NCBI GenBank assembly: GCA_965225915.1
Contig: OZ245326.1
Location: 2,616,701-2,680,700, forward strand
Reading direction: 5' to 3'
DNA length: 64,000 bases
DNA from: a bacterium
GTDB taxonomy: Bacteria > JAAXHH01
The notes under the pieces are model-generated. The model was given only the letters and a program-made list of their open reading frames with translations, was not told the DNA's origin and ran no database searches. This document shows, piece after piece, positions 4,020 to 25,300 of the stretch (its first letter is position 1; each line of letters starts with the position of its first letter). The position numbers and the translations under genes were made by a program.

Positions 4020-4037
4020 GGGCGTTATTTCCGATTC

Positions 4038-5150: not shown

Positions 5151-5261
5151 TGAGAAGGTCCGCCGGATGGCTGAATCCGGCGTTCGGGCCCCCCCGTGTA
5201 AGCATCTGACATTATTCGAGTAGTAACATGAACCGCAGGTTTACATAAACCGGAGGATCCC

Positions 5262-6248: not shown

Positions 6249-6318
6249 CGCGTCGACGCCATCTTACTTGTACTTCGGTTTCGCACAAGCGATACCAGAC
6301 AACGAATCACTATCCAAC

Positions 6319-6388
6319 ACAGATGGTCAGAATGAAGCGGTCAATCATCCAGGACAGATGGTCAGAATGAAGCGGTCAATCATCCAGG
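6319..6388. repeat. perfect tandem duplication, 35 bp x 2 (acagatggtcagaatgaagcggtcaatcatccagg)
   Basis: Read directly: copy 1 at 6319-6353 and copy 2 at 6354-6388. It lies in the convergent intergenic space between the UxuA-like gene and dapD. Confidence 0.95.
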
Positions 6389-6401
6389 ATGTTTGCGTCG
6401 G

Positions 6402-7244: not shown

Positions 7245-7664
7245 ATTGGTTTTAACTCCTGGAAATTGATCAGGTCTATTAGATGCTCACATGTCCGGCC
7301 GTACAGACGACACGCATCGTTCGAGACCCTCCGGATCATGGCTTTTTCTAAGGATTCCCTGCGCGTGCGCCACAAGGTAATACTGCTTCACGGCATTCTG
7401 TCAAGCATCAATCCTTTGCACCTCGAAGTTGCTGAACAGGCCTGTCTGAACCGACAGCGTGTTCCTATTCAACGTTTATTGAATGTAAACCGTTTCATAG
7501 TGCGTCCCGGCGTTGATCTTTTTGCGCAAACCCTTGACAGCACCAGTCCTGGCCGGTTGCTTTTCAGGAAAACCTCGACTTTTCGTGGGGGAATCTCGAA
7601 ATGGACGTCAATCAAGGGTATCGGGTAGCATCGTAGCCAAAAACATCCGTTGGAGGACAAAAAG

Positions 7665-8462
7665 GTGATTTCTACACGCATACTTCCAGGAGAGTGCCTC
7701 GACGACACCCAGATGGAAAAAACGCTGGAAGTGTTTCACCGGGACGGGTTGGCCCTGATACCGGGGGTACTGACCCGGGATGAAATCGATGCCCTCCGGG
7801 AGGTCACGGACCGGTGTTTCAACGACCCCGTGCTGGCCGGCACCGATTACACGAGCGGGCGGGGGGACGGTTTCGTGCTGCGCAACACGCTGGAGCTGGA
7901 TTCCGTGTTCGTGGACATGCTGATCCGGGAACCCATACTGAGCCTGGCGGAGGCGATCGTGGGGACGGACTGCAAGTTCTGCGGCCAGAACGTGATCCGC
8001 AACGCGCCGGGCCAAGCCATATCGCGGTGGCACGTGGACGACCGGGTGGAATTTCCGCTGCCGGACGACGTGCCCCGCCACGATCCCCGCGTCCGCATGC
8101 CGGTGCAGTGGTTCACCATCCAGATGGCCCTGACCGATATCGACACGGAAGAGGACGGACCGACGCAGTTCGTCCCGGGAAGCCACTATTCGGGGCGCGA
8201 ACCAAACAGCCAGGAACACCCCGAGTTCGAGGGCAGGGGACCGGTTTCAGCCCTTTGCAAGGCGGGGGACGTCTACCTGCAGAACAACCAGTGCTGGCAC
8301 CGCGGGGGGCCCGTCACGTCGGACCGGACGCGCTACGTGTTTCAATCCCAGTACGCGGCCCACTGGGCTTACAGGCGGTTCTCGGAGTATAACCACGTGC
8401 CCGTGCCGCCCACGGTATTGAACCAGGCCTCCGACAGGTTGCGCGGGGTGCTGGGCGTGTGA
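7665..8462 (+). CDS. PhyH-family Fe(II)/2OG dioxygenase
   Basis: WHVDD (HxD), PGSHY and CWHRGGP motifs. A GTG at 7665 has GGAGG 8 nt upstream; the ORF track starts at a TTG at 7650. Confidence 0.8.
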   Translation: MISTRILPGECLDDTQMEKTLEVFHRDGLALIPGVLTRDEIDALREVTDRCFNDPVLAGTDYTSGRGDGFVLRNTLELDSVFVDMLIREPILSLAEAIVGTDCKFCGQNVIRNAPGQAISRWHVDDRVEFPLPDDVPRHDPRVRMPVQWFTIQMALTDIDTEEDGPTQFVPGSHYSGREPNSQEHPEFEGRGPVSALCKAGDVYLQNNQCWHRGGPVTSDRTRYVFQSQYAAHWAYRRFSEYNHVPVPPTVLNQASDRLRGVLGV

Positions 8463-10773: not shown

Positions 10774-10806
10774 GAACCACCTCCGCACCCTTCATCCAGG
10801 CTGACG

Positions 10807-11610
10807 TCAGTCCCGCTGCAGATGGCTGAATTCCGGTCTGGGGCCGCCCTTTTCCCGGTCCCACTGCCACAGTTCCGTGTAGGGAGACTGGACCTGGAAA
10901 CCGAATATGACCGGTCCGTCTTCGCCCGCCCGTTCGAGCACGTCGGGTCGGACCACGCGGGCCATTTCGTATTCGCACCTGGTCCATCGGCGACGCCACG
11001 GACTCAATACCGCGTAGCGCGGCCCTTCGGTCTGGTTCTTCGTCGTGCCGTGCCAGGTGTTGACGTCGAAGAGCACCAGCGAGCCTACAGGTGCGACGGC
11101 GGTCCGGGCGTTGTCATAGGCCGTTTCGGGGACGTCCAGATACTCGTACCGGTGGCTGCCGGGGACGAACTCGGTAGCGCCGTTGATCTCGGTGAAGGGA
11201 CTCAGGCAGAAGATCACGTTGAAGGCGATAGGATGGCTCGTGATCCGCCGGCTCTCGTCCGCTTCGGCCATGGAAGCTTCCCGGTTGTGACCGGTGATGC
11301 CGCTGTCGGAATGCAGCCCGCGCCCGCCCTCACCGGGCATCACCACCGATCCGTACACGGCGCTCAGAAGCGCGTCGGGGCCGAGAAAGTGTCGGACCAG
11401 GCGCAGCAGGTCGGGAAGCTGGTAGAACCGTTCAAAAACCCTCGCCTTGTTGAACAGCCATTCGAAGCCGCCCCGCTCCCTCTCGGGATAACGGGCCTCG
11501 AGTTCTCTGCGCGCCTCGGCGCATTCGTCCGGCGTCAACTGGCTGGACAGGATGGTAAATCCCTCGACCTTCAGGTCCAGCACATGGCCCTCGAATTCTT
11601 CCTTTGTCAT
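10807..11610 (-). CDS. PhyH-family Fe(II)/2OG dioxygenase
   Basis: GLHSDSG (HxD), PGSHRYEY and NTWHGTTKN. The 5' part of the listed 384-aa ORF is Arg/Gly-rich junk that overlaps the next gene, so the start is taken at MTKEEFEG (11610). Confidence 0.8.
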   Translation of the reverse strand: MTKEEFEGHVLDLKVEGFTILSSQLTPDECAEARRELEARYPERERGGFEWLFNKARVFERFYQLPDLLRLVRHFLGPDALLSAVYGSVVMPGEGGRGLHSDSGITGHNREASMAEADESRRITSHPIAFNVIFCLSPFTEINGATEFVPGSHRYEYLDVPETAYDNARTAVAPVGSLVLFDVNTWHGTTKNQTEGPRYAVLSPWRRRWTRCEYEMARVVRPDVLERAGEDGPVIFGFQVQSPYTELWQWDREKGGPRPEFSHLQRD

Positions 11611-11645
11611 GGTATGGATCGTCTTCCCATATGTTGTCGCGTGGC

Positions 11646-12461
11646 CTATCGTCCCGACAGGTCCTCGCCCAGGTCCGTCGCGTCCACCTTGCCCTTTTCC
11701 AGGCTCACGCCCACGACAAAAAGCTCCAGGTCCTCGTCCGTGTGGTTGAAGATCCCGTGAGCCCCGCCGAGCGGGTTGGGGATGGCGTCCCCGCGGACCA
11801 CTGCCTCGGTCTCGTCGTTTACTGTCATCCTGCCCCGGCCGTTCATGATCATGTAGGCTTCCTCCACGAGATCGTGCCGATGGTAGCCCACGGAAGTGCC
11901 GGGCGGCAGCAGGATGTGACAGAGATACTCGAAATTGGTTTGGAAATCCCGGCTTCCCCATACCTCCCGGAACAGCACTTCACCCCGGCCCTCATGGAGC
12001 CGGAGCGGCCTCAGCAGGGATCGGTCGAAACGTCCCACGGGCAGCCGGTCCGTGGACTCCAGGGCGACGTTTCTGCGCGGGTCGTTGAAATCCTCGTGCT
12101 TAGGTTCGCGGACTGTATCCACACAGTGGAAATTGAAGAACCAGGTATCCTGGTCCGTGTGGTTGTAGATGCCGTGGGACTCGCCTGATCGCAGGGGTAC
12201 CGCGGCGCCGCCCGTGACCTCGGCCGTGCGTCCGTTGTGGGTGAACTGCATGGCGTTGTCGATGCTGACGAAGATCTCTTCCGCGTAGGTGTGGCTGTGT
12301 TCACCGATGCCGCTGCCGGGCGGGAAGATCACGGAATGGATGAACCCCCAGGGAGACTTGAATGCCGTGGCGTCGAACCCGGGGTTGAAATAGCTCGCCG
12401 CGGCGCCGCCGTGGCTGACACCCAGGTGCATTTCTTCCCGTCTGGTATGGGATATCAACAT
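11646..12461 (-). CDS. bicupin protein
   Basis: Two cupin motifs (GIGEHSHTYAEEIFV and SVGYHRHDLVEEAYMIMNG). The ATG at 12461 has GGGAG 8 nt upstream. Confidence 0.6.
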   Translation of the reverse strand: MLISHTRREEMHLGVSHGGAAASYFNPGFDATAFKSPWGFIHSVIFPPGSGIGEHSHTYAEEIFVSIDNAMQFTHNGRTAEVTGGAAVPLRSGESHGIYNHTDQDTWFFNFHCVDTVREPKHEDFNDPRRNVALESTDRLPVGRFDRSLLRPLRLHEGRGEVLFREVWGSRDFQTNFEYLCHILLPPGTSVGYHRHDLVEEAYMIMNGRGRMTVNDETEAVVRGDAIPNPLGGAHGIFNHTDEDLELFVVGVSLEKGKVDATDLGEDLSGR

Positions 12462-12518
12462 GTGGTCCGCTCCCGACACCCGGAAGATAGCATCATCCAG
12501 GGCGCGTATTTCGGATCA

Positions 12519-13319
12519 CTACAGGGTGACTTCCTCAACGGCTTGCGTACCGGTCTCGTAAGCAGGCCGCCACCGGTCGTGGGCCATGGATTCTTCCTCG
12601 GTCAGACCGCACAGCCAGTTCCAGGTGTGTATACGTCGCCTCGTGTCCCGGTAGGATTCAACCCCGCTCGTGTAGGGAGCGGACGGGCGATCCCGGTACT
12701 CGGGGATTGCTTCCGAATCGATCAGCCAATCGCGCCGCGGCGGAGTGTTCCGGAAGTAGGAGAATTTGATCATGCTACGGGGCTTGTGATTGAGCTTCGG
12801 ACCGGCCCTGTGCCAGATGCCGTAGCGTGTAATGGCCACGGTGCCGGCCTTCACGACCAGCGAAAGCTGGCCCGTGAGATCGCCGTAGTGGGCCAGGGCG
12901 TCGCGGTTGACCGCCCGGCAGTGGGAACCGGGCAGGATCATGGTCGGGCCATCCTCGATCCCCACGTCCTGCGGATAGTAGTAGCACTGGAGTTCGTTGA
13001 TCTCGTAACCATGGCCGGATATACCGTCCGAATGCCAGTCCTGTCCCGAGACCGGCTCGTTCATGAGGTGGTGATGACCCCCCGTCGGCATCAGGAAATT
13101 GGGACCGAGCAGCGATCGTATCACGCCCGCCAACCGGGGATGGAGCAGGACTTCGCGGACGAAATCGGGAGAACCGACCAGTTCCTTCGCGGGGCCTACC
13201 TTGACGTTGCAGCACCGCTCGTTGAAATCGGGATCCACCATGGCTACGAGCACCGCGTATCCCTTGGCCACGAAATCCATCACGTCGTCATCGGTCATCG
13301 TCGGTCTGATCTCCGCCAT
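12519..13319 (-). CDS. PhyH-family Fe(II)/2OG dioxygenase
   Basis: DWHSDG (HxD), LPGSHCR and GIWHRAGPK. GGAGG lies 7 nt upstream of the ATG. Confidence 0.8.
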   Translation of the reverse strand: MAEIRPTMTDDDVMDFVAKGYAVLVAMVDPDFNERCCNVKVGPAKELVGSPDFVREVLLHPRLAGVIRSLLGPNFLMPTGGHHHLMNEPVSGQDWHSDGISGHGYEINELQCYYYPQDVGIEDGPTMILPGSHCRAVNRDALAHYGDLTGQLSLVVKAGTVAITRYGIWHRAGPKLNHKPRSMIKFSYFRNTPPRRDWLIDSEAIPEYRDRPSAPYTSGVESYRDTRRRIHTWNWLCGLTEEESMAHDRWRPAYETGTQAVEEVTL

Positions 13320-13331
13320 CGCATCGCCTCC

Positions 13332-13694
13332 TCAGTTCCACTTCTCGAGTATGAAATCGAAACCCACGTAGTCGTTTTCAAGGTCCTTGTATTCGTAAAG
13401 CTTGGGGATAGGGTACTGCACCACGCGCCATCCGTCGGCAACAGCCTCCAGCACGGAGTCGTAAGGCGGCTCGTCGCCCGGCAGCCTGAGTTCCGGCCAC
13501 TCGCCTGGGACGAACACCGCCCAACCGACGATCCCGGATCGCATGCTGGTCGACCGTGCCGTCAGGTACATGGTCTTCGGCCGGGGCGGGTTTTCCACCA
13601 GGGCTTCCAGTCGATCGAGGTCCCGCGCATCCAGTGACCCATCTTCAAGTTTCTTACGGCTTACGGCTAGCCATTGACTGATCTCCGATTGCAT
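13332..13694 (-). CDS. hypothetical 120-aa protein, first gene of the minus-strand PhyH/cupin operon
   Basis: An ORF with genome-typical composition whose stop lies 12 bp from the next gene start. I recognise no family. Confidence 0.5.
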   Translation of the reverse strand: MQSEISQWLAVSRKKLEDGSLDARDLDRLEALVENPPRPKTMYLTARSTSMRSGIVGWAVFVPGEWPELRLPGDEPPYDSVLEAVADGWRVVQYPIPKLYEYKDLENDYVGFDFILEKWN

Positions 13695-13884
13695 GTCACA
13701 AGCCCTTGTGTATCAGTATATAGTCCGATAATTAAAAGTGTGAATGGTGTGTGGAATTCGGTATGCCTGACCGGGATTGTACAGGCGAAAAGGACACGTT
13801 GTCAAGCATGATCGAAGTTTGCCCGCTACCGGAATCCGGCATCCGCGGCAGGCTTGACAGCAGCGCCGCGGCCCCATATGTTCC

Positions 13885-14667
13885 ATGGACCTGAAACCCG
13901 GATTCCAGGATAGCCCAATGTCCGATTTGAAACCCTTGAACACCCAGCAGATCAACCAATTCAAGTTGAACGGCTACCTGGTTCTGGAGAACGTGTTCGA
14001 CGAAGAGACCGTCGAGGCCTGGCGCCGGCAAATCTGGCGGAAACTGAACAGTTCGCTGGAGGAACCTGAAACCTGGCCCAGGGAAACGAGCGGTCTGGAC
14101 GGGTATGAATATGATCCGCCCGATTCGGCCCTCGTGCACCATCCGTACATGATGGCGATCATGGACCAGTTCAGCGGCGGGACCTTCGTTGCCGGGGACG
14201 GCATTCCCATCATTCGCTGGCCGGAGCTGGAACGTACATGGCAAATGCCGAAAACAGGGCATATCGACGCCTACGGGGGACGCTGGCTGCCCTTCATGAT
14301 CGGCGCGACAACCTACCTGTACGACGTGGAACCCGGCGGCGGCGCTCTCATCTACTGGCCGGGAAGCCACTTTGCGGCCCACCGGTATTTTCTGGAACAT
14401 CCTTCGCAGGTGGACGGCAATTTTCTGGAGATCGAAGGTTTCTCGTGGGACGTATTCTGCGACAACCCGGCCACCGGCGGCCGGGAGTTTGCCGCGAAGG
14501 CCGGCGACTTGGTGCTGTGGCATTCCTACCTGACCCACAACGGTTCGGAAAACACGGGTACTATGCCGCGCATCGCCCTATTCGCCCGATGGAACCACGA
14601 AAGACACCTGGAGAAAGCCTTTCGCTACGAGATCCCCGATGATCTGTGGAAATACTGGGCGGTGTGA
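13885..14667 (+). CDS. PhyH-family Fe(II)/2OG dioxygenase
   Basis: GHIDAYGG (HxD), WPGSHF and YLTHNGSEN. An alternative start, MSDLKPL, lies at 13918. Confidence 0.8.
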   Translation: MDLKPGFQDSPMSDLKPLNTQQINQFKLNGYLVLENVFDEETVEAWRRQIWRKLNSSLEEPETWPRETSGLDGYEYDPPDSALVHHPYMMAIMDQFSGGTFVAGDGIPIIRWPELERTWQMPKTGHIDAYGGRWLPFMIGATTYLYDVEPGGGALIYWPGSHFAAHRYFLEHPSQVDGNFLEIEGFSWDVFCDNPATGGREFAAKAGDLVLWHSYLTHNGSENTGTMPRIALFARWNHERHLEKAFRYEIPDDLWKYWAV

Positions 14668-14724
14668 CCCGTTGGATAACCTAACAATGTTGGCTATGTT
14701 TAAGAAAAACGCGGAGTTGGAGCT

Positions 14725-16119
14725 ATGGAAATAAGAAAACTCATTTTAAGGGATGTTCGATGTTTTGCCGGTCGACAGGAGTTCGTTATCTGCCCACTTA
14801 CATTTTTGGTGGGAGAAAACAGTACTGGTAAAACTACGGTTCTAGGTTGCTTGCAAGCAGTTTATGATTTCATGTGTAGGAAAGGTTATAGTCTAAACTT
14901 CAATGTAGATCCTTACCCAATGGGAGCATTTTCAAATTTAGTTAGGAGATCTAATCCGACAATAAAACAGTTCCTGGTTGGGTTAGAACTACAGGCCTCA
15001 AAGAAAAAGGAACCGGTTGAATATACATTGATTCTGGTTGCGAGAGAGGAAGGTTCAGAACCCGTAATAAAGGAACAAAAGATAGTTACTAAGCAAGGAG
15101 AGGCGTTTTTCTTCAGGGATGACAGGGAAGCAGATACAACGAAATCTATTCAAAACGATGATTCATCTATCATGAACTTAGGATTCGAAATTGTTGACTG
15201 TTCTGAAGAAAGCGGATACACGAAATTTACTTTAAAAGAAGCAACGGAGCTGAGATTGGATCTCTCACTGTTAGGTTTATTTAGATCTGAGAGTGCGAGG
15301 ACTTTTGGATCTATAAGAGGCGACAGAATCAATTCAGTACCCAAGAACTTTAGAGTTTTTGAGAAATTCAGAAATGCTATTTCGAATTTACTCGATATAA
15401 AACCTAGTTCCTTGTTCTTCAGCAATAGTAGGTTTGACCAACCTGATATAGTCAGTTTTGCTCCGGTGCGCTCTAAACCTCAACGCACCTACAATCCGTT
15501 TAAAGAGGAAGAGAACCCAGAAGGAATCGACATCCCGATGTTGATTATGAATATGTCAAGAGCGAATAAGGATAGATGGGGTGAACTAAGAGACAGTTTA
15601 ATTAAGTTTGGAAAATCATCTGGCTTGTTTACCGATGTAAATGTCAGAAGACTGGGGAAGTCAATTGGCGATCCATATCAACTACAGATTAAGGTAAAAG
15701 GACCTAAAGTAAATTTCACTGATGTGGGATACGGAGTGAGTCAAATTCTTCCGATCCTTGTCCGAATCTACAACGCATACTCTAAGACGGTTTTCTTAAT
15801 GCAGCAGCCAGAGGTACATTTACATCCCAAAGGCCAAGCTGAACTGTCTTCAATGTTGATTGAAACCATTAAAAGCAAGAAGCACAGATATGTGATTGAG
15901 ACTCATAGTGATGCTATGGTAAATAGAGCACGAATTGAAATCATGAATGGTGTAATCGCACCACAGGATGTCTCACTTATATACTTAGAACCTGTTGGCA
16001 ACCGAGTGAGAGTTCACAATATAAGTTTCGACAAACAAGGCAATCTTATAGGTGCTCCACCTGGCTATAGAAACTTTTTCATAAATGAATCGGATAGGTT
16101 ACTAGGTTTTACAAATTGA
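14725..16119 (+). CDS. ABC/SMC-like ATPase of the AAA_21/AAA_15 type with DUF3696-like C-terminus
   Basis: Walker A GENSTGKTT (aa 30-38), Q-loop-like RSKPQRTY and signature-like DVGYGVSQILPIL. Walker B/D-loop is VFLMQQPEVHLHP and the H-loop is IETHSD. A ~300-aa insert separates Walker A from the signature motif. The C-terminal tail is FDKQGNLIGAPPGYRNFF. Confidence 0.8.
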   Translation: MEIRKLILRDVRCFAGRQEFVICPLTFLVGENSTGKTTVLGCLQAVYDFMCRKGYSLNFNVDPYPMGAFSNLVRRSNPTIKQFLVGLELQASKKKEPVEYTLILVAREEGSEPVIKEQKIVTKQGEAFFFRDDREADTTKSIQNDDSSIMNLGFEIVDCSEESGYTKFTLKEATELRLDLSLLGLFRSESARTFGSIRGDRINSVPKNFRVFEKFRNAISNLLDIKPSSLFFSNSRFDQPDIVSFAPVRSKPQRTYNPFKEEENPEGIDIPMLIMNMSRANKDRWGELRDSLIKFGKSSGLFTDVNVRRLGKSIGDPYQLQIKVKGPKVNFTDVGYGVSQILPILVRIYNAYSKTVFLMQQPEVHLHPKGQAELSSMLIETIKSKKHRYVIETHSDAMVNRARIEIMNGVIAPQDVSLIYLEPVGNRVRVHNISFDKQGNLIGAPPGYRNFFINESDRLLGFTN

Positions 16120-16129
16120 AAGTACATTT

Positions 16130-16543
16130 ATGTGTCTTATTTTAGATACCAACAAATTTAGTGAGTATGTAAATCCTGAAAACCAAGATATGGAACTCGT
16201 AAGAAAATGGATGAGCAAAAATGGTAAGATGGTGTACTCACCGACATTAAAATTGAAACAAGAATTGGAAAAACACGACAAGATGAGAAAGCAGTTTGAT
16301 CAATTCAGAGAAAATGGAAAACTGAAACAATATCCAGCAAGAGAAGTTGAACAGGATAAAAGATCATTACCTCAACTGAAATCTGACGACCCTGATATAA
16401 TCGCCTTGGCCAGGATAGCCAAGGTTAAGCTGTTAGTCTCGGGCGACACCAATCTGCATACTGACTTTAAATCTGTTGTTAACGGGAGTGTTTACCAAAC
16501 CACGAAACACAAAAAACTGTTGAGACAAGACACCTGCCCTTAA
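16130..16543 (+). CDS. small PIN-like (VapC-like) putative nuclease
   Basis: The acidic residues fall in PIN-typical contexts: ILDTN (D6), QELE (E45/E47), SDDPDIIALARIAKVKLLVSGDTNLHTDF (D86/87/89, D106, D112). It starts 10 bp after the ATPase stop and shares the AT-rich composition. Confidence 0.5.
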   Translation: MCLILDTNKFSEYVNPENQDMELVRKWMSKNGKMVYSPTLKLKQELEKHDKMRKQFDQFRENGKLKQYPAREVEQDKRSLPQLKSDDPDIIALARIAKVKLLVSGDTNLHTDFKSVVNGSVYQTTKHKKLLRQDTCP

Positions 16544-16589
16544 GTTTTGTACCCGCATTTTTTAATTCTAAAATGTTTATTAGCGTTCC

Positions 16590-17417
16590 ATGAACGAGAC
16601 CCCCCGTTACCTGTCCGGCGAACAACTGGATCAATTCTGGTCCGACGGCTACCTGGTGCTGAAGGGCACCCTGAACGCCGCTACCGTGGAAACCGCCCGC
16701 AACGCCATTCTTGACCTGATCCCCCGCGACCTTTCCCTGCCGGACCACTATATCGCGTACTGCGGCAGAATCAAGCCCATGCACACTGACGGAAACCACA
16801 GTTTCTACAGTCCGGCGCTGCTTCCCCTGCTTCAAAATGAAGGGCTCTACCGGGCCGCGGCCGATATCCTCGAAACCGACTGCATCCGGGTGGGAGACGG
16901 CTCCGTGGGGATTACCCTGCGTGATTCGGGGCGCGAAGGGCGCATTCAGAACCTGCACCTGGACGCGCGGCCGGGCGGACCGGAGGATCTGAACCGTCCA
17001 TTCCTGCGCCACGGGATCGGCATCGGCGGATGCTACTACCTGTCTCCCGTCGAAGAAAACGGCGGCGGCATCCACGTTATTCCCGGCGCGCCGAACAGGG
17101 TGAGGGACGTCATGCTCAACGAACCGGAAGGACTGTCGCGCAACGACACCTGGACCCACGTCGTCGATTTTCCGCCGTCGGTGGAGGTCAAAGGGGACGC
17201 CGGCGACTTCGTGCTCATGCACCACCTGATGCCCCACGCCGCCAGCGCCAACCACCGTAGTGTGCCCAGGGTCGCCCATTTCACCCGCCTGTATCCCCTG
17301 GAGGGCGAAGAGGCCCGTCTCGCCCCGGGACCCGACCGATCCATGAGTTCCGAAGCACTGGCCATGCTGACGCCACTGGGCCGCAAGTTGTTCCGTATGG
17401 ATCCCTGGATCGAGTAA
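16590..17417 (+). CDS. PhyH-family Fe(II)/2OG dioxygenase
   Basis: NLHLDARPG (HxD), a distal HLMPHAASAN, and the N-terminal QLDQFWSDGYLVLKG typical of PhyH. Confidence 0.75.
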   Translation: MNETPRYLSGEQLDQFWSDGYLVLKGTLNAATVETARNAILDLIPRDLSLPDHYIAYCGRIKPMHTDGNHSFYSPALLPLLQNEGLYRAAADILETDCIRVGDGSVGITLRDSGREGRIQNLHLDARPGGPEDLNRPFLRHGIGIGGCYYLSPVEENGGGIHVIPGAPNRVRDVMLNEPEGLSRNDTWTHVVDFPPSVEVKGDAGDFVLMHHLMPHAASANHRSVPRVAHFTRLYPLEGEEARLAPGPDRSMSSEALAMLTPLGRKLFRMDPWIE

Positions 17418-17423
17418 CATAAT

Positions 17424-19406
17424 GTGCCGCAACATGAACGGAGGTATTCCATTTCCCCGGAACCACCTCGAAACCGCGGATCAACGGCCGTAACCCTGCG
17501 GGCCGGGATCATCGGTCTAGGGCTTTCCGCCGTGGTGGCCGTCTGGGGACAGTTCGCCGCCGACCACGCCGGGTACAACTACGTCACCTACGCCCATCTG
17601 CCCTCGGCGCTGCTTATCCCCTTCCTCGTGCTGATCCTGGGACCCCACGTCCTGCTGAAGATCCTGGCGCCCAGGCACACCCTGACGACCCCCGAACTGG
17701 TCGTGGTTTTCGCCATGGGACTGATCGGTTCGATGGTACCCGACTGGGGCATGACGCGGTACCTGGTCTCCATCATCACCGGACCCTTCTATCACGCCAG
17801 TCCCGAAATCCGCTGGGCGGAAACCTTCTTCGACACGCTGCCCGCGTGGCTGGTGATCAGCGACAAAACCGACGCGGTACGGATTTTCTACGAGGGGGCC
17901 GGCCCCGGGTACGACATCCCGTGGATGGCCTGGATCTCGCCCCTGCTGTGGTGGATGTCGTGTTTTGCCGCCCTCATGTGGACCGGCGCGTGCATCGTGG
18001 TCATCCTGAGGAAGCAGTGGGTCAGCCACGAAAGGCTGCGTTTCCCCCTGGGCGAGGTGGCGCTCAACCTGATGGGTCTGCAAAAGGACGAAGACAGGCC
18101 GCCCATGGTCCGCACGAACGCCTTCCGGATCGGCGTCGTCCTGTCGCTGACCGTCGTTCTTTGGAATATCGTTTCCTACTGGGGCTTTGTTTCACCGATT
18201 CCCATCATGGGACCGGACCTGGTGTACGTGAAGGTGCACCCGTCGATCCCCGATCTTCCCATCAGGCTGAATGTCTTCGTGCTCTGTTTCGCCTTTTTTG
18301 TCAATGCCGAGATCCTGTTCAGCCTTTGCTTCTTCCTCCTGCTCACGACGCTGCAACGCGGCGTACTGAACATGCTCGGGGTTACGGCGGCGACGACGAT
18401 GTCGCCCACCGGACTGGTGGGCACGCAGTCCATCGGCGCCCTGATCGCCCTGGTGGTTTGGGGACTCTGGATGGCCCGGCGTCACCTGGCCGCCGTGGGC
18501 AGGCGGGCGTTCCGGAAGGATACGGCAGTGGATGACCGGGAGGAGTTCTTCTCCTACCGAACAGCGGTGTTCGGAATGATCTTCGGATTGATCTACCTGC
18601 TGGGTTGGCTCTACAGCATCGGCATGTCGCTGCCGGTCAGCCTGGCCCTGCTCGCCGTCCTCTTCATCGTATACCTCGGCATGGCCAGGATCGTCGCCGA
18701 GGCGGGCCTCGTCGCCATGGACCTGCCGGTGAACGCCAACGTCTTTACCGCGGGCATCATCGGCGCCGACAACCTCAACTCTTCCACCATCACCGCCCTG
18801 GGCATGACGAACGCCTTTGCGCGGAACTGGCGGACTTTCACGATGATCGGGCTGTCCCACACCGCGTATCTCCAGCGCTGGATGCAGCCGGCCACCCGGC
18901 ACCTCTTCCTGTGGATCTGCCTGTCCTTCGCCGTGAGCGTCGTCGCTTCGCTGTATTATTACATCAGCGCGGGTTACGCCGTGGGCGCCGACAACCTGCT
19001 ATCCAAGCCCGGCGATCTCGTGCCGTTCTTCTACAATACCATCATGCAGTGGAACAGCAGCGCGAGTAGTGTTTCGGGACTTGAACTGGTATTTTTCGGC
19101 AACGGCGTCGCCCTGTACATGCTGATGATCCTGGGGCGCTTCCTCTTTCTCTGGTGGCCGCTGCATCCCATCGGACTCGTCGCCGTGGCCGCGGACACCG
19201 TCCGGTTCATGTTCCTGCCGTTCCTGCTGGCCTGGCTCATCCAGGTGATCCTGCTGCGCCTGGGCGGGGGAGCGCTGTACCGCAAGGCGCAACCCCTCTT
19301 CCTCGGCATCCTGGTGGGCTACGTCGTGGGCATGGCGCTATCGTTCCTGGTGGACAGCCTCTGGTTTCCGGCGACGCCCCACCAATTCGAATCCTTCATC
19401 AACTGA
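17424..19406 (+). CDS. polytopic membrane protein of unknown family (paralogue A), candidate transporter
   Basis: At least 12 hydrophobic segments. It shares LRKQWVxHERLxFPL, NAxARNWRT and WWxLHPIG blocks with the protein at 23306-25300. The GTG start lies 7 bp after the preceding stop. Confidence 0.75.
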   Translation: MPQHERRYSISPEPPRNRGSTAVTLRAGIIGLGLSAVVAVWGQFAADHAGYNYVTYAHLPSALLIPFLVLILGPHVLLKILAPRHTLTTPELVVVFAMGLIGSMVPDWGMTRYLVSIITGPFYHASPEIRWAETFFDTLPAWLVISDKTDAVRIFYEGAGPGYDIPWMAWISPLLWWMSCFAALMWTGACIVVILRKQWVSHERLRFPLGEVALNLMGLQKDEDRPPMVRTNAFRIGVVLSLTVVLWNIVSYWGFVSPIPIMGPDLVYVKVHPSIPDLPIRLNVFVLCFAFFVNAEILFSLCFFLLLTTLQRGVLNMLGVTAATTMSPTGLVGTQSIGALIALVVWGLWMARRHLAAVGRRAFRKDTAVDDREEFFSYRTAVFGMIFGLIYLLGWLYSIGMSLPVSLALLAVLFIVYLGMARIVAEAGLVAMDLPVNANVFTAGIIGADNLNSSTITALGMTNAFARNWRTFTMIGLSHTAYLQRWMQPATRHLFLWICLSFAVSVVASLYYYISAGYAVGADNLLSKPGDLVPFFYNTIMQWNSSASSVSGLELVFFGNGVALYMLMILGRFLFLWWPLHPIGLVAVAADTVRFMFLPFLLAWLIQVILLRLGGGALYRKAQPLFLGILVGYVVGMALSFLVDSLWFPATPHQFESFIN

Positions 19407-19467
19407 AACCTGCCCGAGAACATGGAAGAACGATCGGGATAACCCGAAACACATGCGAGGCTAAACC

Positions 19468-20829
19468 ATGACAGGTACCAAACGCCCCAACCTGTTGTTC
19501 ATCATGGATGACCAGCACCGCCACGACTACCTGTCCGCGGCAGGCGCATCATTTCTAAATACGCCGAACCTGGACCGGCTCTCGCAACGCGGGATCCGCT
19601 TCACGCAATGCATCACCAACGCCCCGGTGTGCGCGCCCGCGCGCATTGGCCTGGCCAGCGGATACCAGCCGGCGCGGCTGGGTTGCCTGGACAACAATTG
19701 CTACCTTCCCCGGCACATCACGCCCTATTACGCCCGCCTGCGGGATGCGGGGTACCGCGTAGGCTGCGTGGGTAAACTCGATCTCGCCAAGCCGGATCCC
19801 TACAACGGCCTTCACGGCGATCGTCCCCGGGTTTTCGGATGGGGATTTACCCATCCCGTGGAGTGCGAGGGCAAGATGCACGCCGGCATGGCGGACGAAC
19901 CCCGGGGACCGTACGGATTCTGGCTGCGGAATCAGGATCTCTTCGAAGGCTTCAGGGCGGACTACGCGGCGCGGGGAGCGAAGGGATGGATCGAAGGCGC
20001 GTCCCACGACTCGGTCCTGCCCCTCGAGGCCTTCGAGGACATTTACATCGGACGTCGCGCCGTCGATTGGATCGAAGCCGTGCCGGACGACTACCCCTGG
20101 CACCTGTTTGTGAGTTTCGTAGGTCCCCACGACCCCTTCGATCCACCCGCGGCTTACGCCGACCGTTACCGGGACGCGGAGGTGCCGCCTGCCGTGCGCA
20201 GCGCGAGAGAAGGGAAACCGGACTGGGTCAACGCGCGGCGTCGCGACCTGTCCGACGATGAGGTCGCGGTCACCCGTCGCCAGTACTGCGCCGCCATTGA
20301 ACTCATCGACGACCAGGTGGGCCGGATCATCGAGGCTGTCGAGCGGCGGGGCATGGGAGAGGACACCTATATTGTTTTTGCCAGCGACCACGGGGAGATG
20401 CTGGGCGATCACGGCATGTACACCAAGTCCCTGCCCTACGAGGCGGCCCTGCGTGTGCCCCTGATCGCCGCCGGACCGGGCATACCGGGCGGGCGGACCT
20501 CCGACGCTCTCGTGGAACTGATCGACGCCAACCCCACCCTGTGCGCCCTGGCTGAACTGCCGGCCCAGGACGGCCTCGACGCGATAGACTTCGGCGCCGT
20601 GCTCACCGGGGAACGGTCTACCCACCGGGAGGAAGGAGCCAGCGCGCTGCGTCAGTTCAGGCTGGTCCGTACGGCGGAATACAAGCTGGTCTCACACGAG
20701 ACGGGCGAGACGGAACTATACGATCTGCAGAATGATCCCGAAGAAAGGGATAACGTGGCGGCGGACCGTTTGGATTCGGTAAGGGAGCTCAGGAGGCGGC
20801 TGCGCCGCCGGTTTCACTTCCCGCCCTGA
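19468..20829 (+). CDS. sulfatase (formylglycine type), no signal peptide
   Basis: NLLFIMDDQHR metal-site start and the CAPAR (CxPxR) formylglycine motif followed by IGLASG. The rest has the sulfatase core layout. Confidence 0.9.
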   Translation: MTGTKRPNLLFIMDDQHRHDYLSAAGASFLNTPNLDRLSQRGIRFTQCITNAPVCAPARIGLASGYQPARLGCLDNNCYLPRHITPYYARLRDAGYRVGCVGKLDLAKPDPYNGLHGDRPRVFGWGFTHPVECEGKMHAGMADEPRGPYGFWLRNQDLFEGFRADYAARGAKGWIEGASHDSVLPLEAFEDIYIGRRAVDWIEAVPDDYPWHLFVSFVGPHDPFDPPAAYADRYRDAEVPPAVRSAREGKPDWVNARRRDLSDDEVAVTRRQYCAAIELIDDQVGRIIEAVERRGMGEDTYIVFASDHGEMLGDHGMYTKSLPYEAALRVPLIAAGPGIPGGRTSDALVELIDANPTLCALAELPAQDGLDAIDFGAVLTGERSTHREEGASALRQFRLVRTAEYKLVSHETGETELYDLQNDPEERDNVAADRLDSVRELRRRLRRRFHFPP

Positions 20830-21671
20830 CCGCTTGCAGCACCGCTGTAAGGCGCCCCGGAAGGCGCGGCGTGTTGGGGAGAGACGATCTTCCTGCGATC
20901 GGGCGTCAGGCGGTCCAGCAATTCGGGTGACGGCTGGTACCCGTGGCGGAAGTTGCCCCAGGACGGTCCGTACCGGTAGACCACGATACGCCGCGTTCCC
21001 GCGTTTCGGCGGGTGGCCGAACCGTGGGAAATGCCATCCACGAACAGCAGGGCGTCGCCGGCTTCCATGAACAATTCGACGGAAGCGGTGATGCCTTCCA
21101 CGGAGGCCCCCTTCGGCTTCATGGCGTGGCGGGCGTATTCGGGATGGATGAAGTTGGACTTGTGGCTACCGGGAATGACCATGGTGGCGCCGTCCCCCGG
21201 ACCGATGTCGGTCAGGGCGATCAGCACGTTGATCTGTCCGCACATGAACCGGCCGCCATCGTAGCGGAATCCATTGCGCATGATCCGCGGGAATCCCCCG
21301 GAATGCAGTCCGATCGCCTCGCCCGGTTCCCGGAAATTGGCGAGGTTTTCGTCGATGAACAGCGGTCCGTGGCTGTAGTCGAACGTCCCTTCCCCGCCCA
21401 CGAAGTGCTTTAGCTTATCGATCCAGGATGGATGATCGATCAGGGCTTCAAAGGGGGCGCCCGCCTCGTAAATCTGTTGCAGGTTCAGTCCGTCCACGGT
21501 GCCATAGGTATGGGCATGAACGCAACCGTGCCATTCGCCGGGCGACAGGGGCGGGATTTCGTCCAGGCAGGCGTTCAGTTCAGTCACCTCTGCCCCGGTC
21601 AGGGCCTGCTTCATGTGGATGAAGCCCTGCAGGTCGAAGAGGTAGATATCCAGGTCGTCGGGTTTGCTCAT
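20814..21671 (-). CDS. PhyH-family 2OG oxygenase-like protein with HxG instead of HxD (candidate halogenase)
   Basis: GLHSGGF: H123 is encoded at 21303-21305 and G125 at 21297-21299. VIPGSHKSN and the distal GISHGSATRR are retained. Its 3' end overlaps the sulfatase 3' end by 16 bp. Confidence 0.7.
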   Translation of the reverse strand: MSKPDDLDIYLFDLQGFIHMKQALTGAEVTELNACLDEIPPLSPGEWHGCVHAHTYGTVDGLNLQQIYEAGAPFEALIDHPSWIDKLKHFVGGEGTFDYSHGPLFIDENLANFREPGEAIGLHSGGFPRIMRNGFRYDGGRFMCGQINVLIALTDIGPGDGATMVIPGSHKSNFIHPEYARHAMKPKGASVEGITASVELFMEAGDALLFVDGISHGSATRRNAGTRRIVVYRYGPSWGNFRHGYQPSPELLDRLTPDRRKIVSPQHAAPSGAPYSGAASGQGGK

Positions 21672-21857
21672 GGGGAAGCACCGGTTGCCGATGGGAAATC
21701 CAGTTGATTTGTGGTTGGTGATTCGTTACTCTCTTGACCGGCAATATAGTACGCCACCCGGCGATACACAACCCAATTACCCCGGCCATATGGCCAGGCG
21801 CCGGCCGGGTCCATTCCAGACCGATGCACCCCGTGGAAACAGGACGAGGTAACCTGG

Positions 21858-23228
21858 ATGAAGGCCGTTTCAACGCCCAATATTCTGATCGTGCTGAGTG
21901 ACCAGCTGCGTCGCCAGGCCCTGTCCACCTACGGCGATCCCAACATCGTTACGCCCCACGTAGACGCCCTGGCCGACCGGGGCGTGCGCTTCGAAAACGC
22001 CAGTTCGACCTGCCCCATCTGCGTCCCCTTCCGCTTTTCCTTCATGACGGGCCTGTACGCCCATGACCGGAAGGTCCCGGGGATCGAGTACAGGATGTCT
22101 CCTGCTGAGCGGACCCTTGCGGACGAATTCAACGAGGCGGGGTACGAGACGATATACACGGGGAAATGGCACCTGGACGGCGGTCACGGCCGCATGGGGT
22201 CGGCCCGCCAGTGCGGGCGGACGCCCGTAAAGAAAGCCTACCGGGGCCGCTGGGAGAAATGGCTGGGTTTCGAGCTCAGGAACGGTCCCTTCGATACGTT
22301 TTATTTCGAGGACGACGACCCGACGCCTCGACCGATCGAAGGGTACCAGACCGACGGTCTTTTCGATCTGGCCATGGACAACCTGGAACACCGGGACCCG
22401 TCCCGGCCCTTCTGCATGGTGATCTCCGTCGAGCCGCCCCACGATCCCTTCGAAGCGCCGGAAGCCCTGCAACGCACCTGGGAGGCGATGGACATCGTAC
22501 TGCCTCCCAACGTCGAGGCGGCCGCCTCCGAAGACTTGGAACGGATCATGCTCAACCGGAAGCGTTACTACGCCATGGTGGAGAACCTGGACTGGAACAT
22601 GGGGCGACTTGGCGCTTTTCTGTTACGGACCGGACTCCAGGATGACACCGTTGTCCTGTTTCTTTCTGATCACGGCGAACTCGGCGGTGCCCACGGACTA
22701 CGGGGAAAGCAGTGGCCTTACGAGGAGTCGACGGGCATTCCCCTGATCGTGGTGGACCCCAGGTGGCCGGAGCGGGCGGGCGACACGATCCAGGATCCGG
22801 TCTGCACCGAGGATCTGTTCCCCACCATCCTGGGTTTGGCTGGAGTGAAGTCGAAAGACGACCTACCGGGTACCGACCTCACCCCGCTGATCCACGGCGA
22901 CGTCGATCATTTGAAAAGGGAAGGCGTGATGCTCGAATTCGTGGCGGAGTTGAGGCAGGGCATGGCCTTCTACGAATGGGTATGGCGCGGATTCCGGACC
23001 GCCCGGTACAAGTACACCGTTCGCGGGGACAACCACGGCGGCGGCCCGTGGCAGTTTTTCGACCTGGCGAATGATCCCTGGGAACAGCGGAATCTCCTGG
23101 ACGATCCCGCGTACCGGGAAGAAATCATACGGCACCATGACCTCCTTTTGCACAGGATGAAGGAAACGGAAGACCACTTCGTACTCCTTCCGGCATTCGG
23201 CCGGAAAGGGTTGAACACCTGGGATTAG
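21858..23228 (+). CDS. sulfatase (formylglycine type), no signal peptide
   Basis: NILIVLSDQLR start and the CVPFR (CxPxR) motif followed by FSFMTG. Confidence 0.9.
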   Translation: MKAVSTPNILIVLSDQLRRQALSTYGDPNIVTPHVDALADRGVRFENASSTCPICVPFRFSFMTGLYAHDRKVPGIEYRMSPAERTLADEFNEAGYETIYTGKWHLDGGHGRMGSARQCGRTPVKKAYRGRWEKWLGFELRNGPFDTFYFEDDDPTPRPIEGYQTDGLFDLAMDNLEHRDPSRPFCMVISVEPPHDPFEAPEALQRTWEAMDIVLPPNVEAAASEDLERIMLNRKRYYAMVENLDWNMGRLGAFLLRTGLQDDTVVLFLSDHGELGGAHGLRGKQWPYEESTGIPLIVVDPRWPERAGDTIQDPVCTEDLFPTILGLAGVKSKDDLPGTDLTPLIHGDVDHLKREGVMLEFVAELRQGMAFYEWVWRGFRTARYKYTVRGDNHGGGPWQFFDLANDPWEQRNLLDDPAYREEIIRHHDLLLHRMKETEDHFVLLPAFGRKGLNTWD

Positions 23229-23305
23229 ACCGCGCGGCATTCGAGCGGCAATGAACCGGATCCGTACTCTGCAACGACGGAACGCCATAGGAAATCGAAG
23301 TTTCC

Positions 23306-25300
23306 ATGTCCCTTTCCAGCACGACATCCGCGCAGACCGGTAGAGATGAAAGCGGAGGATCCGGGGCGACCCTCACGTCGGGTATGACAAAAAAGGCGCT
23401 GTTTATCGGCGTCGTCATGTCCGTCCTCCTGAATATCTGGACGCTCCATGCAGCGTATGTCACCGGGTCGTCCTATATCAGCCTGACCCATCTGCCCGTC
23501 GCCGCGTTGTTCCCCTTCATGCTGGTCCTGCTGGTCTTCAATCCCCTGATGAAGTTCTTCTGGCCGGCCTGGGTCCTGAACCGGTATGAACTCATTGTCG
23601 TTTTCTTCCTGGTCTTCACGGCTTCGACCATTCCCGCCTGGCCCTTCAGTTCCTACTGGATTTCGGCCATCACCGCGCCCCACTACTATGCCACGACGGA
23701 GAACCAGTGGGCGGAACTGTTCTTCCAGTACCTGCCTTCATGGCTCATCGTTTCCAACGAGCAGCAGGCCATATCCTGGTTTTTCGAGGGCGTGCCGGAA
23801 AGCAGACCCTCTATCCTTGGGCTGTTACGCAACACCTGGTCGATACCGCTCTTCTGGTGGATCACTTTTTTTCTGGCGATCTTCGTCGTCGGCGCGTCGG
23901 CCATGGTCATGCTTCGGAAACAATGGGTGGAACACGAAAGGCTGACCTTTCCGCTGGCGCAGATCCCGTTGATCCTGATCGAGGAAGGGACGGGCCGCCG
24001 GGCCCTGCCCGCCGTGATGCAGTCGAAACTGTTCTGGTACGCCTTCGGCCTAACGCTGTTCATTTTCCTTTGGAATATCGTGGGATTCTTCAACTGGGTC
24101 AGTTCGATCCCCATCGGTCCCCTGCACAACTTCACCCTGGTCCTGGCCCGGTCTTTTCCGGCCATACCCATCCGGTTCAATTTCCTGGTGGCCGGGGTCG
24201 GGTACTTCACCAACCTCAACGTCCTGTTCAGCATATGGGTCTTCTTCGTTATCATGATCATACAGCAGGGCATCATGATCCGTCTCGGCGTACCCAAGGC
24301 TTTCGCGGTCGTCAAGTCGCAGCATTCCGGGGGGTTTCTCATCTTCTCCCTTTTCGCCCTCTGGACCGCGCGGCGGCATCTGAAGGACGTGTTTATGAAG
24401 GCGATTGGAAGAGCCCCCCATGTGGACGATTCGAAGGAGTTCTTCTCCTATCGCATGGCCATGCTGGGCGTGCTTGGGGGCGTAACGTATATCGTCTGCT
24501 GGCTGTACGCTTCGGGAATGTCCCTGGGCATCATCGTCTTCATGATGGGGTCGTTGTTGATCATGTTCGTTGGTGTGACCCGCATCGTGGCGGAAACGGG
24601 CATCGTTTTCCTGGATCTGCCCTTCGAGACCCATGATTTCACCGTCGCCGTCATCGGGTCCGGCAGCATTGGTACGCGGGACCTGACCAACCTGGCCATC
24701 GGCAACGCCTACGCACGCAATTGGCGGACCCTCGGCATGTGTTCCATGGGACACATCGCCAAGGTGGACGATGAAATGGGGGGAACGGGAAAAGGGGCGT
24801 TCCGTGCGATCACCGGGGTGCTCGCCCTTAGCATCATCGTGGCGGTGGCGTACACCGTGTACCTGGGATATACCCACAGCGGGGCGTCGAACTTTCTTGA
24901 GCCCGCCTTCAACACGGGAAGCAAGCTGCCCTACGACAATCTCGTGAGATGGATCAGCAACGAACAGGCGATCACGGGAATGGAATTCTGGTTCATGGCT
25001 TTCGGTGGTGTGGTTACCGCGCTGTTGATCCAGGCCCACCATCGATTCACCTGGTGGTCGCTCCATCCCATCGGGTTCGCTGTGGTCATGACGCCGGGCA
25101 TGGTCAGTTCCGTGTTTTCAATCTTCGTGGTCTGGTTCGTAAAAGCCCTGTTGCTCAGGGTGGGGGGCATCCAGCTGTACCGGAATGGCATACCCGCCGT
25201 CCTGGGTATGCTGGTCGCCTTCGTGCTCGGCGTATTCCTGTCTTACGTGGCGGACTGGATCTGGTTTCCGCAGGCCGGCCATCCAGTACAGACCTGGTGA
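23306..25300 (+). CDS. polytopic membrane protein of unknown family (paralogue B), candidate transporter
   Basis: Colinear with the protein at 17424-19406 over its full length, by eye roughly one third identical. Confidence 0.75.
   Translation: MSLSSTTSAQTGRDESGGSGATLTSGMTKKALFIGVVMSVLLNIWTLHAAYVTGSSYISLTHLPVAALFPFMLVLLVFNPLMKFFWPAWVLNRYELIVVFFLVFTASTIPAWPFSSYWISAITAPHYYATTENQWAELFFQYLPSWLIVSNEQQAISWFFEGVPESRPSILGLLRNTWSIPLFWWITFFLAIFVVGASAMVMLRKQWVEHERLTFPLAQIPLILIEEGTGRRALPAVMQSKLFWYAFGLTLFIFLWNIVGFFNWVSSIPIGPLHNFTLVLARSFPAIPIRFNFLVAGVGYFTNLNVLFSIWVFFVIMIIQQGIMIRLGVPKAFAVVKSQHSGGFLIFSLFALWTARRHLKDVFMKAIGRAPHVDDSKEFFSYRMAMLGVLGGVTYIVCWLYASGMSLGIIVFMMGSLLIMFVGVTRIVAETGIVFLDLPFETHDFTVAVIGSGSIGTRDLTNLAIGNAYARNWRTLGMCSMGHIAKVDDEMGGTGKGAFRAITGVLALSIIVAVAYTVYLGYTHSGASNFLEPAFNTGSKLPYDNLVRWISNEQAITGMEFWFMAFGGVVTALLIQAHHRFTWWSLHPIGFAVVMTPGMVSSVFSIFVVWFVKALLLRVGGIQLYRNGIPAVLGMLVAFVLGVFLSYVADWIWFPQAGHPVQTW

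Follow-up and report, generated by a model that had tools for sequence, protein, structure and literature searches.

HEC-03 (Hma-embedded candidate 3) of Pseudomonas cichorii joins an ATP-binding cassette (ABC) ATPase to a PIN-domain protein (WP_025259138 and WP_025259137; Payne et al., bioRxiv 10.1101/2024.01.29.577857). Both of its genes are needed for phage protection, and the system works when cloned alone (bioRxiv 10.1101/2024.01.29.577857). Dyads of an OLD-type ABC ATPase and a PIN endoribonuclease have also been noted in BREX loci (PMC12839542). Here we analyze an AT-rich islet of two genes, A and B, at positions 14668-16589 of a 64,000-nucleotide stretch of bacterial DNA (GTDB lineage JAAXHH01; assembly GCA_965225915.1, contig OZ245326.1, forward strand, positions 2,616,701 to 2,680,700), which we call the window. 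Gene A encodes an ABC ATPase of 464 amino acids (aa) and gene B a PIN-domain protein of 137 aa. Homology and context suggest that the two genes of the islet form a self-contained conflict module of the OLD/DUF3696-type ABC ATPase plus nuclease class, most likely an anti-phage abortive-infection module, and we consider this reading probable. An earlier note on this DNA, made from its letters alone, recognized no named system with this pairing; HEC-03 and the BREX dyads precede it.

In the A-B pair as in HEC-03, the first gene encodes an ABC ATPase of about 460 aa and the second a small VapC-like PIN protein, and both systems occur embedded in other defense operons. The embedding differs, being in Type III restriction-modification (R-M) operons for a subset of the A-B loci and in Hma for HEC-03, and so do the hosts. 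The two ATPases share the motifs PxRxxPxRxY, TDVG[FY]GVSQ, QPExHLHP and E[ST]HS[DE]; HEC-03 reads TDVGFGVSQ and MEQPEIHLHP, its Walker B dyad being E-Q where that of A is Q-Q. Sequence identity between them is 27%, in the C-terminal half only (BLASTP E 8e-19), and the model of the HEC-03 ATPase (PDLC04148) matches A partially, over residues 282-452 in the C-terminal third (1.3e-24, 85 bits). The B family aligns with the HEC-03 PIN protein over 35 columns at an hhalign probability of 54%, both having a PIN fold. Membership of the A-B pair in HEC-03 is not established.

The Menshen system (NsnA-NsnB-NsnC), reportedly described by Millman in 2022, resembles the pair in that A is NsnB-like over its full length, has the motif peculiarities of NsnB and is followed directly by a gene for a PIN-fold protein. 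In NsnB, an arginine replaces the Q-loop glutamine, the signature is GxG and the Walker B dyad is a non-canonical E-N (PMC12065111). In AlphaFold3 models of Menshen, the PIN-like domain of NsnC sits between the C-terminal tails of two NsnB copies, and all 35 Menshen inPIN families are without the D-E-D-D acids (PMC12065111). The A-B pair differs in having no ParB-DUF262 NsnA (plus ParBDB), the gene upstream of A in the window being a PhyH gene, and in that B is a single-domain protein which is without the C-terminal toxin/nuclease domain of NsnC and retains the acids. Membership in Menshen fails, with neither NsnA nor a two-domain NsnC with an inactive PIN present. Because B retains the acids lost in inPIN, the PIN protein of the A-B pair would itself be the effector, not an adaptor.

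PARIS (AriA/AriB), Septu (PtuA/PtuB) and Gabija (GajA/GajB) likewise use an OLD-type ABC ATPase as sensor or regulator of a nuclease effector, but their effectors are Toprim or HNH rather than PIN, A resembles their ATPases in the generic core only, and no homologue of AriB, PtuB or GajB is present in the A-B pair. With VapBC the pair shares the VapC fold and the acidic active-site set of B, whereas the upstream gene encodes a large ABC ATPase instead of a VapB-type DNA-binding antitoxin and B stays under the Pfam PIN threshold. PrrC and RloC are ABC-ATPase-regulated anticodon nucleases of Type I R-M loci, made as single polypeptides with a different nuclease domain; A-B loci with the order Mod-A-B-Res are like them in that an ABC ATPase-controlled ribonuclease (RNase) would be nested in an R-M operon, with a backup-to-restriction logic. 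Since HEC-03 membership is not established and Menshen membership fails, we file A-B as a distinct, so far uncatalogued family of an already published kind of pairing.

Linkage and architecture of the two proteins

One genome per GTDB species was scanned, and 144 genomes were found to encode a relative of B. From these, 80 loci were fetched and joined by six from exact-protein look-ups, giving 86 loci (labelled L001 onward, with W for the window). A homologue of A lies directly upstream of B on the same strand, at a gap of about 0-30 bp, in 85 of the 86 loci and in many phyla; in the sole exception B stands at a contig end. This linkage, which the earlier note had named as a check on its proposal, persists at identities as low as about 30% in both proteins. 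When all open reading frames (ORFs) within about 7 kb were clustered over the 86 loci, no third conserved gene appeared beyond subsets of loci. Both genes are under purifying selection, the ratio of nonsynonymous to synonymous divergence (dN/dS) being 0.12-0.15 for A and 0.16 for B. Judged from the names of their records, most hosts belong to lineages known as sponge symbionts (Poribacteria, Latescibacterota, Binatia, Entotheonella, Poriferihabitaceae, Porisulfidus).

B is a PIN domain, as judged from the Pfam matches of its family, its predicted structure and its conserved residues. The AlphaFold2 (AF2) model is a confident single domain of alternating strand-helix topology, with a predicted local distance difference test score (pLDDT) of 93.4 and a predicted template modeling score (pTM) of 0.87. 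Comparison of the B profile with PDB chain sequences gave only noise (best E 0.16), so a fold search was needed; in it, the 17 best Foldseek matches in the PDB are PIN domains without exception, most of them VapC toxins, at probabilities of 0.87-1.0 and template modeling (TM) scores of 0.5-0.6. At the sequence level, B scores 13.7 bits against Pfam PIN (PF01850), under the gathering score of 23.6, while 14 of 60 B relatives match Pfam PIN (E<=1, best 5e-8) and six match PIN_3. B has no NCBIfam match and 0 PADLOC matches at E<=1. Its family comprises 1702 representatives at 50% identity (E<=1e-3), or 970 at E<=1e-10, and the 150 best listed representatives are almost all stand-alone proteins of 130-160 aa.

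Residue conservation in A and B was counted over 64 distinct homologous pairs. At the canonical D-E-D-D positions of PIN domains, B has D6 (62/64), E45 (64/64), D87 (64/64) and D106 (63/64), joined by D112 (64/64). By these residues, B retains the D-E-D-D(+D) set with which active VapC-type RNases bind metal, and the PIN-like character with acidic residues that the earlier note had read into B is borne out by fold and conservation alike. Two cysteines, C2 (16133-16135) and C136 (16535-16537), are kept in 63/64 and 62/64 pairs; a disulfide and a metal site are both possibilities.

A is an OLD/AAA_15-type ABC ATPase, as had been proposed, with support from Pfam, PADLOC and fold matches. Pfam AAA_15 matches at 1.6e-18 over the full profile (1-374) and AAA_21 at 2.9e-15. 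The best PADLOC match is Menshen NsnB (4.4e-37, 127 bits), with residues 3-460 of A on positions 2-343 of the 345-position profile, followed by PDC-M55A (1.3e-36) and the generic AriA (7.6e-20), PtuA, GajA and Old profiles; NCBIfam yields weak P-loop matches, none above cut-offs. The AF2 model is of moderate confidence (pLDDT 69.9), with low-pLDDT segments in the variable insert. Searched with Foldseek, it has 155 PDB matches at E<=1e-3, the best 50 of which include SMC, Rad50, PtuA, GajA and OLD.

Inspection of the A motifs reveals the same departures from the ABC canon as in NsnB at the Q-loop and the signature, and a third at Walker B. The motifs listed in the earlier note lie where it had placed them and are conserved over the 64 pairs; the Walker B motif, however, does not have the D-E dyad. 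It reads hhhh-Q-Q-P-E, without both canonical acidic residues, and Q360-Q361 (15802-15807) are conserved in 64/64 and 63/64 pairs, E363 in 63/64 and H365, L366 and P368 in 64/64. Because of this invariant Q-Q, the A clade may be naturally slow or impaired in ATP hydrolysis, binding ATP without turning it over fast.

Between Walker A and the Q-loop equivalent lies the least conserved part of A, an insert of residues 121-240. In the comparison of the window with L001, the insert shows 81-82% aa identity, against 95-98% elsewhere in A; its dN/dS is 0.25-0.28, against 0.04-0.10 in the other regions of the protein. We regard this insert as a candidate trigger-sensing surface.

The C-terminal tail of A is modeled by AF2 at pLDDT 84-95 as a helix (396-407), two strands forming a beta-hairpin (416-424 and 427-435) and a terminal helix (446-459), the last carrying the conserved residues Y448, F451, F452 and E455. 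The earlier note had called this tail DUF3696-like. Pfam DUF3696 (PF12476) does not match A or 51 relatives at E<=1, so that Pfam does not bear out this label, while it does match a plasmid DUF3696 relative (2.6e-10); the NsnB profile aligns on A up to residue 460, and the HEC-03 ATPase carries a DUF3696 annotation in its NCBI record. We propose that the tail is a docking site for B. The pairwise divergence of B follows that of A (r 0.68-0.85), and its partial correlation is highest with the A tail (0.34, against 0.12-0.24 in other A regions); as the pairs are not independent, this co-divergence is only suggestive of a link.

We note that other DUF3696 ATPases occur on plasmids with other partners. 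In L087:3441-6059 (Azotobacter pAcX50e) and L088:2865-5493 (Aeromonas pAsa9-like), the ATPase gene is followed by an overlapping gene for a 177-aa hypothetical protein and by an RNA-ligase-family gene, which looks like a different, three-gene DUF3696 module. On plasmid p1 of Bacillus pacificus (L089:2865-5326), the gene of a DUF3696 ATPase overlaps that of a hypothetical protein of 352 aa; no NsnA gene is present, and an AbiGi/AbiGii pair lies beside it. The Aeromonas 177-aa and Bacillus 352-aa proteins were rejected as relatives of B, with hhalign probabilities <1% and no Pfam match in either.

Type III operons and the case for a phage-defense module

The pair is repeatedly found inside R-M operons. 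At least seven genomes, from different phyla, have the order Mod-A-B-Res (L002/L013, L012, L014, L017, L022, L023, L024), with Mod overlapping A by 4 bp and Res beginning about 25 bp after B in most such loci. Mod is a Type III methyltransferase (PADLOC MTase_III 3e-105) and Res the restriction subunit of a Type III system (REase_III 1e-23; Pfam ResIII); the A homologue of L002 matches NsnB at 5.2e-40. Other arrangements are Mod-Res-A-B (L027), A-B followed directly by Res (L066) or by a Res fragment (L063), and L006 has the pair within a toxin-antitoxin-rich island. Among 87 neighbor proteins, surveyed at loci outside the clade of the window and picked as the longest ORFs, N6_N4_Mtase and ResIII are the most frequent Pfam families (7 each), domains of Type I R-M recur, and DUF262 is not in the 25 commonest; these family counts are lower bounds, because picking by length takes in some shadow ORFs of high-GC DNA. 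The defense-type surroundings expected for such a pair are thus often seen, rich in R-M or toxin-antitoxin genes, many loci being metabolic nonetheless.

Two further observations concern these operons. L064:4863-8420 carries two complete pairs in tandem (A 4863-6182, B 6179-6610, A 6679-7998, B 8001-8420), with a Type III Res gene directly after them. Just upstream of Mod-A-B-Res in L002, at 3252-4175, lies a gene for a DUF6602 protein with PD-DExK/NucC-like PADLOC matches (4e-17), which may be a further defense gene.

The proposed defense role of the pair is well supported by context, and homology points the same way. In our proposed mechanism, A oligomers would hold B inactive in the uninfected cell, probably via the conserved C-terminal tail of A. 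The variable insert would sense a cue from the phage, perhaps an anti-restriction protein or some other phage product, and this would alter the ATP-bound state of A, which, with its Q-Q Walker B, probably acts as an ATP-binding switch rather than as a fast hydrolase. B, freed or activated in this way, would cut RNA (tRNA, rRNA or mRNA), leading to translation arrest and aborted infection. This caging and release is modeled on HEC-03, Menshen, PARIS, Septu and PrrC, and we hold it less firmly than the assignment of the islet to a conflict module.

Several observations weigh against an anti-phage role or against this mechanism. Many loci, that of the window included, lie among metabolic genes and not in a defense island. 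Current tools miss the family and would not call the pair defense, because no PADLOC model matches B and the Menshen rules require NsnA. Relatives of B gave no tblastn match in PLSDB plasmids or INPHARED phages and none in IMG/VR (pattern search and tblastn); this absence from phage, plasmid and IMG/VR contigs, at the sensitivity used, is in contrast to PARIS-type systems. The Q-Q Walker B makes ATP hydrolysis by A doubtful. Finally, contact between A and B and the role given to the tail draw on a partial correlation of 0.34 among non-independent pairs and on one recombinant.

The same two genes could instead form a plain toxin-antitoxin or addiction module, with B as a VapC-like toxin and A as no more than its proteinaceous antitoxin or chaperone, the pair stabilizing itself or neighboring DNA without any phage defense. 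B is indeed VapC-like with intact active-site residues, the regulator-then-toxin order with its 10-bp spacer is typical of such modules, L006 lies among classical toxin-antitoxin pairs, and the distribution resembles that of an AT-rich selfish element. However, a VapB-type antitoxin is missing, its place being taken by a 464-aa protein from the ABC ATPase clade of the HEC-03, Menshen, PARIS and Septu sensors or regulators, and the overlapping-gene embedding in Type III R-M operons, together with the fast-evolving A insert, suits sensing. We give this explanation a low but appreciable chance, and note that toxin-antitoxin and abortive-infection roles are not mutually exclusive. The R-M operons themselves suggest that the pair might be a backup layer, in which A watches the Type III complex and fires B when anti-restriction proteins disable it, as in PrrC, the window copy then being an orphan of reduced or altered function. 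The overlapping or near-contiguous genes of Mod-A-B-Res, the prominence of Type I and III R-M genes as the commonest neighbors and the published parallels of PrrC/EcoprrI, the HEC systems in Hma and the OLD-ABC dyads in BREX speak for it. Yet in about 70 of the 86 loci, among them those of the syntenic 8-genome clade to which the window belongs, the pair has no R-M neighbor, while both of its genes are intact and under purifying selection, and HEC-03 is active when cloned alone; we rate the backup reading unlikely.

Two other explanations carry much less weight. The pair could be a decayed Menshen, left with NsnB and a non-functional PIN adaptor after loss of NsnA and of the C-terminal nuclease of NsnC, and it is true that NsnB is the best PADLOC match of A over its full length and that the N-terminal PIN-like domain of NsnC is predicted to bind NsnB. 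This is largely refuted by the two-gene form in 85 of 86 loci across many phyla without a third conserved gene, by the acids that B keeps, by a B family that is nearly all stand-alone and by purifying selection on both genes, which leaves it very improbable. A housekeeping pair for RNA processing or ribosome quality control, with no part in genetic conflict, would fit the metabolic genes around the window locus and the occurrence of PIN domains in rRNA maturation (Utp24 and Rrp44 are among the fold matches). We reject it as scarcely credible in view of the patchy phyletic distribution, the strongly atypical composition, the swapping of alleles between close relatives, the decay by insertion sequences or truncation in L010, L011 and L026, and the embedding in R-M operons.

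If the anti-phage reading is confirmed, a large family joins the ABC-ATPase/nuclease anti-phage class, with relatives of B confirmed in at least 144 genomes at species level and some 1,700 clusters formed at 50% identity. It leaves the picture of how such systems work unchanged and would not surprise a specialist; its noteworthy features are the Q-Q Walker B, the stand-alone PIN protein predicted to be catalytically intact and the Type III R-M embedding. Because it is compact (1.9 kb), with an intact effector active site and a natural Q-Q, the pair is a convenient model for nuclease caging and release by OLD/NsnB-type ATPases, and in the Mod-A-B-Res operons the idea of a backup effector built into Type III restriction can be put to the test. 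Sponge microbiomes are known for defense-gene enrichment, on which the concentration of the family in sponge-symbiont lineages bears.

A bolder idea, which we think unlikely but worth stating, is that this widespread family represents the Menshen/HEC-03 lineage in its minimal and ancestral form, in which an NsnB-like ATPase uses its tail to cage a PIN RNase that is still catalytic. Were this true, the inactive-PIN adaptor of Menshen would derive from such an effector, and the invariant Q-Q Walker B would turn the ATPase into a natural hydrolysis-dead ATP-binding switch. The versions fused to Type III R-M would guard Mod/Res and fire on phage anti-restriction, a PrrC-like logic for Type III systems, and such guard versions would be enriched in sponge symbionts under heavy phage pressure.

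Composition and layout of the islet

The earlier note had described an abrupt AT-rich islet between two PhyH genes, and the computed composition agrees. The GC content of the islet is 38.5%, against 60.3% in the remainder of the window, a z of -11.9 relative to 583 equal-length windows outside the islet (mean 0.604, sd 0.018, minimum 0.535). In a 300-nt profile, GC falls from 0.59 to 0.40 over 14350-14950, the drop lying between 14500 and 14650, and returns from 0.39 to 0.61 over 16300-16900, the recovery lying between 16450 and 16600, and the sole 1-kb bin of the window under 47% GC lies at the islet. At third codon positions, the three neighboring genes have a GC of 0.75-0.85, whereas A has 0.36 and B 0.41. 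Both flanking genes encode PhyH dioxygenases by Pfam (13885..14667 at 1.9e-12; 16590..17417 at 3.9e-8), and the islet itself holds the two co-oriented ORFs seen before. Its features are collected in Table 1.

Table 1. Features of the A-B islet, in positions of the window
Feature	Position	Strand	Basis
Left junction and 5' untranslated region of gene A	14668..14724	+	sequence; alignment of 8 syntenic loci
Gene A, 464-aa OLD/AAA_15-type ABC ATPase, NsnB-like, proposed sensor/regulator	14725..16119	+	Pfam, PADLOC, AF2 model
Walker A / P-loop GENSTGKTT (residues 30-38)	14812..14838	+	G30, N32, S33, G35, K36 64/64
Variable insert region of A (residues 121-240)	15085..15444	+	least conserved part of A
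Q-loop equivalent PVRSKPQRTY, arginine replacing the Q-loop glutamine	15463..15492	+	P247, R249, P252, Y256 invariant; R254 63/64
ABC signature variant DVGYGVSQ, GxG for SGG	15721..15744	+	D333, G335, Y336, G337, Q340 invariant
Non-canonical Walker B FLMQQPEVHLHP	15793..15828	+	Q360-Q361 in place of the D-E dyad; E363 retained
H-loop ETHSD (392-396)	15898..15912	+	E392, S395 64/64; H394 63/64
C-terminal tail of A (residues 401-464)	15925..16116	+	AF2 elements, invariant residues
A-B spacer, 10 bp	16120..16129	+	same length in each of the 8 syntenic loci
Gene B, VapC-like PIN domain of 137 aa, stand-alone; proposed RNase effector	16130..16543	+	AF2, Foldseek, conservation
Catalytic-type residues of B	D6 16145-47, E45 16262-64, D87 16388-90, D106 16445-47, D112 16463-65	+	conservation
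Right junction, 46-bp AT-rich spacer ahead of the downstream PhyH start codon	16544..16589	+	sequence, syntenic alignment

Alignment of the 8 syntenic loci shows that homology with related genomes stops a few bases from the stop codon of the upstream PhyH gene (TGA, 14665-14667). Gene A is preceded by a GGAG ribosome-binding site at 14713-16, and GGAG also occurs within five of the eight syntenic A-B spacers; the spacer of the window and L001 is AAGTACATTT. A promoter and terminator scan gave nothing beyond shuffled expectation, with no terminator-like site in the right junction; a weak promoter-like TTGGAT-N17-TATGTT at 14672-14700 was read by hand and lies under the scan threshold, so that the scan did not report it.

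Allelic replacement at the PhyH-PhyH slot

The islet does not have the integrase, tRNA target and flanking direct repeats of an integrative genomic island. As had been observed by eye, there is no tRNA gene in the 64-kb window, no integrase or recombinase ORF adjoining the islet, and no direct or inverted repeat around it beyond short, two-copy ones at chance level. The best flanking repeat (14 nt, 93% identity, at 14593 and 16498) was rejected as an insertion scar, both copies lying inside coding sequence. GC content is lower in the pair than in the flanking DNA at 83 of 85 loci; the median difference is 8 points, and in the window it is 24.

The PhyH-A-B-PhyH slot is common to the window and seven related genomes (L001, L007-L011, L018), and because the same slot is occupied there, the insertion in the window genome is not recent. 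Comparison of the eight loci reveals a mosaic. The flanks are 85-97% identical to the window, whereas the module of L007-L011 is just 40-73% identical. L010 has the nearest flanks (91-97%), yet its A is 52% identical to that of the window, while L001, with less similar flanks (84-92%), has an A that is 93% identical. Between window and L001, synonymous divergence (dS) is 0.23 in A and 0.60-0.98 in flanking genes. In L018, A is 91% and B 57% identical to the window, the breakpoint lying inside the A tail such that tail and B are kept together. The downstream PhyH gene (16590-17417) is 69% identical in aa to its counterpart at L001:8462-9289 (dN/dS 0.24), other flanking genes being 83-87% identical; the tracts exchanged when the module is replaced by recombination may reach into this gene.

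The mosaic of module and flanks therefore indicates repeated allelic replacement by recombination through conserved flanks, and the module moves and recombines whole or in parts. Such exchange through the flanks also explains the missing integrase and repeats: the pair probably reached the slot, and is replaced there, by homologous recombination and not by site-specific integration. Atypical composition and mosaic allele replacement together show horizontal exchange, in line with the horizontal acquisition that the earlier note had suggested. Decay is seen as well. In L010 and L011, the 3' end of B is lost to an inserted element with a transposase-like ORF, just downstream of 8372/8396, and in L026:5410-7605 an insertion of about 2 kb interrupts A. 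Pfam Transposase_mut occurs among the surveyed neighbor proteins and is not tied specifically to L010 or L011.

In the window, the islet is surrounded, over about 10800-25300, by paralogous genes for PhyH dioxygenases, cupins, sulfatases and DUF6785 membrane proteins. This run of genes looks like a cluster for the degradation of a sulfated substrate, and the same PhyH/cupin/sulfatase/DUF6785 arrangement is found in L001 and six other metagenome-assembled genomes.

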